The notes beneath the pieces were generated by a model. It searched no databases. It worked only from the letters and a program-made list of their open reading frames with translations, and was not told the DNA's origin. This document shows, piece after piece, positions 30,273 to 30,761 of a stretch of DNA of 64,000 nt; positions within the stretch are counted from its first letter, which is position 1, and the number at the start of each line of letters is the position of its first letter. Origin of the DNA: Eledone cirrhosa (lineage: Eukaryota); the NCBI GenBank assembly GCA_964016885.1, contig OZ024758.1, positions 7,440,001-7,504,000 of the forward strand. The letters are read 5' to 3'. Position numbers and translations under genes: made by a program.

Positions 30273-30325
<53 letters not shown>

Positions 30326-30497
30326 GTTCCTTCACGCACAAGGCGCCAAGGTACGCATGTATTGTCCAACCAAATGCCAGTGTGGTTCAATGGCGGGTTA
30401 ATAAATTAACGAGCCAGAACAAATATAAACAAGGTTTAGTAAATAATGAAAAAGTTTCAAAATAAATTTTAAAAAATTGACTTTACCTACTATAGTT

Positions 30498-30581
30498 ACC
30501 TTTACCGATCGGTTTCGAATCCCAAAAATAAAACGGAGACCATACGGCCTTCGTTGCAAAGAAAGATTCTCGTCAGAAGGT
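30498..30581 (-). ncRNA. Type I hammerhead ribozyme with a large stem II loop
   Basis: acctt-CTGACGA-gaatc(43-nt loop)gattc-GAA-ACCGATCGGT-A-aaggt. Stems I and II are perfect 5 bp; stem/loop III is a perfect 10-nt palindrome; GUA cleavage site. Confidence 0.8.
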
Positions 30582-30761
30582 TCTTTTCATTCAAAGAATA
30601 TAAAATTCCTGAATTTAAATCACAAACTAGCGCTATCAAAGACTGTTCCTGGGATGATATATATATATATATATAATATTTGATGAAACATATTATATGA
30701 ATATATAATATAACATTTAAATATATATGTATATATACGTGTGTGAGTGTGTGTGTGTATT

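Follow-up and report, generated by a model that had tools for sequence, protein, structure and literature searches.

The locus raises two questions: what kind of element leaves a complete hammerhead ribozyme in a few hundred base pairs of non-coding DNA bounded on both sides by (TA)n, and whether the perfect palindrome within that ribozyme makes it a dimer-cleaving one. All positions refer to the window, the whole 64-kb stretch of DNA that was analysed, which is AT-rich and microsatellite-dense and looks like part of an animal genome, by impression an octopus-like one. The features of the island are collected in Table 1.

On the minus strand, 30581 to 30498 make up a type I hammerhead that is complete, having a canonical core, a UH-type cut site, an open helix I and three helices. 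It is a genuine motif. The initial annotation had described a canonical core with Watson-Crick helices on the minus strand and a perfect 10-nt palindromic helix III, and both descriptions are borne out, with helix I pairing at 5 of 5 positions, the base of helix II at 5 of 5 and the palindrome exact. Core and helices are intact and decay is not visible. When the 56,678 bases of the window that lie outside microsatellites were dinucleotide-shuffled 300 times, none of four descriptors, ranging from strict to relaxed, found a match. The hammerhead models of Rfam gave no match in the window at the gathering score and none locally at E values up to 10; they were equally blind to the six other hammerheads that the descriptors found in the window. 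Rfam gave no ribozyme match of any kind, and the top-listed local matches, to microRNA models, were rejected as microsatellite sequence.

Table 1. Features of the TA-bounded island and its hammerhead (window coordinates)
Feature	Position	Strand	Details
(TA)n run, 5′ side of the element	30657-30675		
338-bp insert, read as the probable 3′ end of a Penelope-like element (PLE)	30319-30656	-	154 nt to the predicted cut, 184 nt after it
Helix I, 5′ strand ACCUU	30581-30577	-	5 Watson-Crick pairs with AAGGU
Catalytic core CUGACGA	30576-30570	-	
Helix II base GAAUC / GAUUC	30569-30565 / 30521-30517	-	43 nt in between
Helix II arm, 53 nt	30569-30517	-	7-bp base (5 Watson-Crick and 2 G-U pairs), internal loop, inner hairpin
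Inner hairpin of helix II arm	30555-30532	-	4+5 bp, one A-C mismatch, GUAU loop
Core GAA	30516-30514	-	
Helix III, perfect 10-nt palindrome ACCGAUCGGU	30513-30504	-	
Predicted cleavage site, GUA triplet	between 30503 and 30502	-	from the hammerhead consensus
Helix I, 3′ strand AAGGU	30502-30498	-	pairs with ACCUU
Bulged 3′ hairpin	30420-30382	-	4 bp, UU bulge, 4 bp, inner 5 bp, then CAC
20-mer	30356-30337	-	15 of 20 positions as in the tail motif of the family at 62656-62875
(TA)n run, 3′ side of the element	30287-30318		in phase with the run at 30657-30675

Helix II is not as it had been described. The stretch first taken for a 43-nt stem II loop is folded: two G-U pairs extend the helix to 7 bp, and an internal loop and a 9-bp hairpin follow. 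Pair probabilities in the inner hairpin are 0.89-1.0, and 0.91-1.0 across all six contexts in which it was folded. Shuffling lends the predicted inner fold of the 43-nt stretch modest statistical support, as 46 of 1000 shuffled versions fold equally well and 37 of 1000 are equally stable when the 5-bp base of helix II is held fixed; for the whole 53-nt arm, 2 of 200 shuffles are as stable (z -2.65). With no paralog of the island in the window, selection on the inner hairpin cannot be told apart from a neutral insertion. A possible pseudoknot of the 5′ flank with the internal loop of helix II, as a candidate tertiary contact between helices I and II, did not exceed chance, its -2.4 kcal/mol being matched by 14.6% of shuffled flanks.

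The palindrome had been called ideal for dimer formation. By nearest-neighbour estimates, which take in neither Mg2+ nor tertiary contacts, the 10-bp duplex of ACCGAUCGGU is worth -16.6 kcal/mol against -0.9 kcal/mol for the monomer hairpin, in which helix III consists of only 3 bp and a 4-nt loop. Pairing of two copies is thus favoured by energy, and an active double hammerhead reaches -56.4 kcal/mol, about 8.5 below two monomer ensembles. Two estimates speak against a dependence on dimers: an inactive dimer joined via the helix II arm (-56.8 kcal/mol) is level with the active one, and the active monomer fold lies only 2.1 kcal/mol above the minimum. In the minimum-energy monomer fold the core is buried against the palindrome. 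The models assign the active monomer fold a probability of about 0.01 when the context is short and at most 0.001 when it is longer, and the fold of the whole island disfavours helix I (probability 0.08) and helix II (0.19). On these energies, cleavage as a dimer through the palindrome is plausible.

The insert itself, whose edges are uncertain by 1-2 nt within the TA runs, lies between (TA)n on both sides as the initial annotation had it, and the annotated length of about 180 nt downstream of the cleavage site agrees with the 184 nt counted. Both runs share the same phase, which insertion into one tract would produce. The island is single copy at the locus: no paralog of 30319-30656 was found within the 64-kb window by BLAST or nhmmer, no pLTR, tandem or inverted structure of its family was found within 64 kb, and the island itself shows neither a notable 5′ inversion nor a notable internal repeat of at least 8 nt. 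The proposal that it represents a further family, beside those lettered A to C, is upheld in so far as its sequence is separate: none of the five other hammerhead regions compared with it is significantly similar, the best z being 2.5 in 10 comparisons.

No reverse transcriptase or endonuclease sequence was found in the island, nor any ORF tying it to a clade. A 51-codon frame that runs through the ribozyme (30657-30505, minus strand) was considered as a possible terminal stretch of a GIY-YIG protein and rejected, having no Pfam match; the best E value in a Pfam scan of eight frames was 0.068, in another frame, and a weak test for homologs of the 51-codon frame among 12 longer candidates found none. 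A scan of the whole window in six frames for RWK/DKT-type motifs gave one match, inside a microsatellite. No tRNA was found in the window. Prokaryotic or phage origin was rejected after a 23-mer gave no exact match in the genome contig collection and blastn was null among 50,697 phage records.

A PLE origin of the island is probable. Read more fully, the island is likely to be what remains at the 3′ side of a PLE that bears a hammerhead and targets (TA)n, most likely one of the Hydra clade, and is either a 5′-truncated copy or a short non-autonomous one; the Hydra clade specifically is favoured with somewhat lower confidence. The inverted, 5′-truncated structure of neighbouring families in the window is as described for PLEs and was counted for a PLE origin. 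The Hydra clade is defined by an RT with a C-terminal GIY-YIG domain in which CCHH is missing and the motifs RWK and DKT are present (PMC8557442), and membership falls short of proof because this defining protein is absent from the island. With no paralog in the window, evidence from covariation is also lacking.

Known PLE biology suggests how the island may have formed. The GIY-YIG endonuclease of the element would nick a (TA)n tract, target-primed reverse transcription would begin 184 nt 3′ of the ribozyme, and the reverse transcriptase would stop after 338 nt, short of the ORF. Since both sides of the cut site have been copied, the template RNA would have been uncut or re-ligated. The ribozyme, which is probably weak as a monomer, may cut better when two copies pair via the palindrome, as in tandem PLE transcripts. 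Alternatively, the protein of the element might refold the ribozyme. The lone copy at 30319-30656 is probably inert.

The 184-nt tail was also examined for signals. Its bulged hairpin has a z score of -3.98, and none of 200 shuffles is as stable. A descriptor drawn up post hoc, after 30420-30382 had been seen, and loosened in two places to fit, matches seven distinct loci of the window, namely this hairpin and six loci in two other hammerhead-bearing families; it matches 2 of 5000 shuffles of the island's tail, and a Markov background predicts 2.25 matches per window. By eye, a bulged hairpin followed by AC is present in the tails of two of the six new Hydra consensi, Amil2 and Ajap2, while in the Crog consensus it is approximate and three short-tailed consensi have none (PMC8557442). 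The main text of that paper mentions no hairpin or stem-loop. The hairpin supports the PLE reading and is not decisive for it. Profiles built from the tails of neighbouring families found no match to the island. The 20-mer at 30356-30337 is a weak alternative candidate for a conserved tail motif, judged by sequence likeness, and the resemblance is absent from the profile-search results. A likeness of 30480-30501 to the tail of the 11465-11678 family (BLAST E 2.6) was set aside, as the family profile missed it at E values up to 20.

Of the competing explanations, the one that survives best is that a non-LTR retrozyme left a solo monomer here, a self-contained unit some 340 bp long that was cut from tandem transcripts, circularised and reinserted, although we regard it as unlikely. 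The island shares unit size, a type I hammerhead and non-coding nature with metazoan non-LTR retrozymes and differs from them in not being tandem and in its non-canonical helix sizes (PMC7229834; 10.64898/2026.07.22.740005). Published metazoan units measure 150-450 bp (PMC7229834), a range that includes the island, and solo monomers are common (10.64898/2026.07.22.740005), but neither a tandem nor a second copy is present in the window. Helix I has 5 bp and helix II at least 7 bp, whereas the canonical hammerheads of metazoans have 6 and 4 bp (PMC4209133), and it is for Hydra and Naiad PLEs that (TA)n targeting has been reported (PMC8557442). The same 2026 preprint (10.64898/2026.07.22.740005) derives retrozymes from PLE pLTRs, so that this explanation overlaps with the PLE reading.

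A Naiad PLE is a very unlikely source of this 3′ end; its hammerhead would have been missed until now because standard descriptors do not allow for so long a helix II. Naiads do insert in (TA)n and are present in Octopus, and eight of them, including Naiad_Ovul, carry an annotated 'HHR_half_core' whose halves lie 35-50 nt apart, compared with a spacing of 53 nt in the island (PMC8557442). At the 3′ end of Naiad_Ovul, however, GAAA precedes CTGATGA, the opposite of the order in the island, and the sequence is unlike by eye (PMC8557442). The island also has a complete core and all three helices, whereas Naiads are described as lacking a canonical hammerhead. None of four words of 9-12 nt taken from the ribozyme, and neither spelling of the palindrome, occurs in the available supplement of PMC8557442, in which line breaks could mask a match; the island was compared with the published consensi only visually and through this short-word search.

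As an observation on the Naiads themselves, the 'half core' at the 3′ ends of Naiad_Ovul and Naiad_Obim (PMC8557442) resembles by eye a permuted hammerhead, in the order cut site, GAAA, CTGATGA, with a 5-bp helix III, a 6-bp helix I and a weak helix II. This order recalls the SGC order of PMC10085705. A permuted Naiad hammerhead, if true, would run against the statement that Naiads lack hammerheads (PMC8557442).

Domestication by the host, with the ribozyme or structured RNA now working in cis on one of the host's own transcripts, has a still smaller probability. The intact core and helices would suit it, but the island is TA-bounded like other mobile fragments of the window, no host gene was identified nearby among 15 selected ORFs (none above the Pfam cut-off), and helices I and II have the low probabilities given above in the whole-island fold. 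A chance match to the hammerhead pattern, which the silence of Rfam in the window might suggest, is extremely unlikely, given that none of the 300 shuffles gave a match and that Rfam also missed the six other hammerheads.

Related but distinct hammerhead families occupy other (TA)n islands of the window. The relaxed descriptor finds seven hammerheads. Six of them sit in TA-bounded islands no longer than 400 nt, and islands of this kind account for 14% of the non-repeat bases. This placement counts in favour of the PLE reading; the independent count is small because the six represent five islands and three families. An intact Hydra-type hammerhead lies in its own TA island at 38475-38632 (minus strand, core at 38556), with a 7-bp helix I, an 11-12-bp helix II, a helix III of ACCA-C-TGGT and a 36-nt tail. 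It is close to Hydra-1_oBim, which has a helix III of acca-a-tggt and a tail of about 35 nt by hand count (PMC8557442). A three-copy hammerhead family with a 16-nt helix III segment is found at 11465-11678, 35094-35334 and 44532-44735, in inverted, 5′-truncated PLE-like structures between TA runs; at 11465-11678 two hammerheads stand back to back. One further family (35359-35532, 62656-62875, 46704-46794 and 38761-38940) shares a tail motif with the 11465-11678 family and is otherwise unrelated to it. The copies at 35359-35532 and 62656-62875 have only the 3′ half of a hammerhead, with a 19-nt near-palindromic helix III, inside inverted structures, and the tail descriptor matches both of them and 46773.

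Further candidate hammerheads and other repeats were seen in the window. Minimal PLE-type hammerhead candidates with a 4-6-nt palindromic helix III were noted by eye at 34950 (plus strand) and at 46407, 9039 and 465 (minus strand); 465 is the only one of these to pass the relaxed descriptor. The TA-bounded island at 60510-60735 (minus strand, helix III-like segment at 60646) may hold a degenerate 3′ half of a hammerhead. A dispersed repeat of about 190-210 bp, SINE-like by impression, occurs at 9205-9393, 47433-47616, 49577-49765, 61519-61720 and many more sites with 80-97% identity, some copies being tandem or inverted. A near-perfect tandem array with a 70-bp period and about nine copies spans 43602-44258. 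An inverted 303-bp repeat links 12580-12882 to 45303-45605 at 95% identity, the latter copy lying in a TA-bounded island.

As it stands, the locus adds a further PLE hammerhead to those of animal genomes rich in repeats, and it shows that such elements can escape short-loop descriptors and Rfam. No published description of this hammerhead family was found in the mostly open-access literature searched, and the wording 'extended stem II' does not occur in the papers listed there. Lunse et al. 2017 reportedly treat dimeric PLE hammerhead variants and may already describe forms with a long helix II. The PLE transposition cycle is still poorly understood. The ribozyme in 30319-30656 is intact and offers a substrate on which cleavage by monomers and by dimers of Hydra-type ribozymes could be compared; no family-labelled assay of this kind was found for them in the literature consulted. 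Should the helix II arm and the hairpin of the tail prove conserved across copies, both would be candidates for sites of protein binding or RT start. A bolder proposal, which we hold to be rather unlikely, is that helix II is a conserved functional domain gained by a PLE family and that, with a tail hairpin common to Hydra-type elements, it forms a docking site at which the RT of the element switches the ribozyme between an inactive monomer, which serves as template, and an active dimer. Under that proposal, hammerheads built in this way might form a class overlooked so far, since short-loop descriptors and Rfam miss them.

Among known systems, the Poseidon PLE of Anolis described by Frangieh et al. 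2024 (PMC11167929) shows AT-rich nicking, and its reverse transcription starts within a stem-loop located 3′ of the hammerhead. The uncut RNA is the main template of that PLE, and its hammerhead needed protein (PMC11167929). Poseidon serves as a model of mechanism only, being of another clade and having an ORF that overlaps the hammerhead.

It has been reported by Cervera and de la Pena 2014 (PMC4209133) that PLE hammerheads with a palindromic helix III cut weakly as dimers. The island has in common with these a dimer-suited palindromic helix III and a G10.1-C11.1 pair, and has neither the minimal 4-nt helix III nor the extra unpaired base before helix II that most of them show (PMC4209133). 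Perfect 10-nt palindromes are present in the Aedes aegypti and Saccoglossus kowalevskii(2) rows of the 56-row alignment of PMC4209133, and Penelope-1_SK has one together with GUA cleavage (PMC8557442), two features that the island shares with it. Perfect 10-nt helix III palindromes are thus already published for PLEs and are not new here.

The closest likeness is to the Hydra clade, whose members were described by Craig et al. 2021 (PMC8557442) as bearing hammerheads and almost always inserting in (TA)n; the clade includes one Octopus family. In 26 of 26 Hydra rows, by hand count, the helix III segment is 9-10 nt long, starts with AC and ends with GT (PMC8557442). This segment is an empirical Hydra trait and is not exclusive to the clade, as canonical non-PLE hammerheads also show an AC..GU helix III (PMC4209133). 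The island shares with the clade a 3′-proximal type I hammerhead, a 9-10-nt AC..GT helix III, a GUH cut and (TA)n insertion, and its 184-nt tail falls inside the Hydra range of about 35-350 nt by hand estimate; unlike the Hydra PLEs, it has no ORF (PMC8557442). Some other PLEs, for example PLE-X1_sMoe, do have a long loop II and are marked as non-canonical (PMC8557442). The long helix II arm remains a mildly unusual feature of this hammerhead, at 53 nt twice the longest core-to-GAA span of 26 nt by hand count in the Hydra table (PMC8557442).
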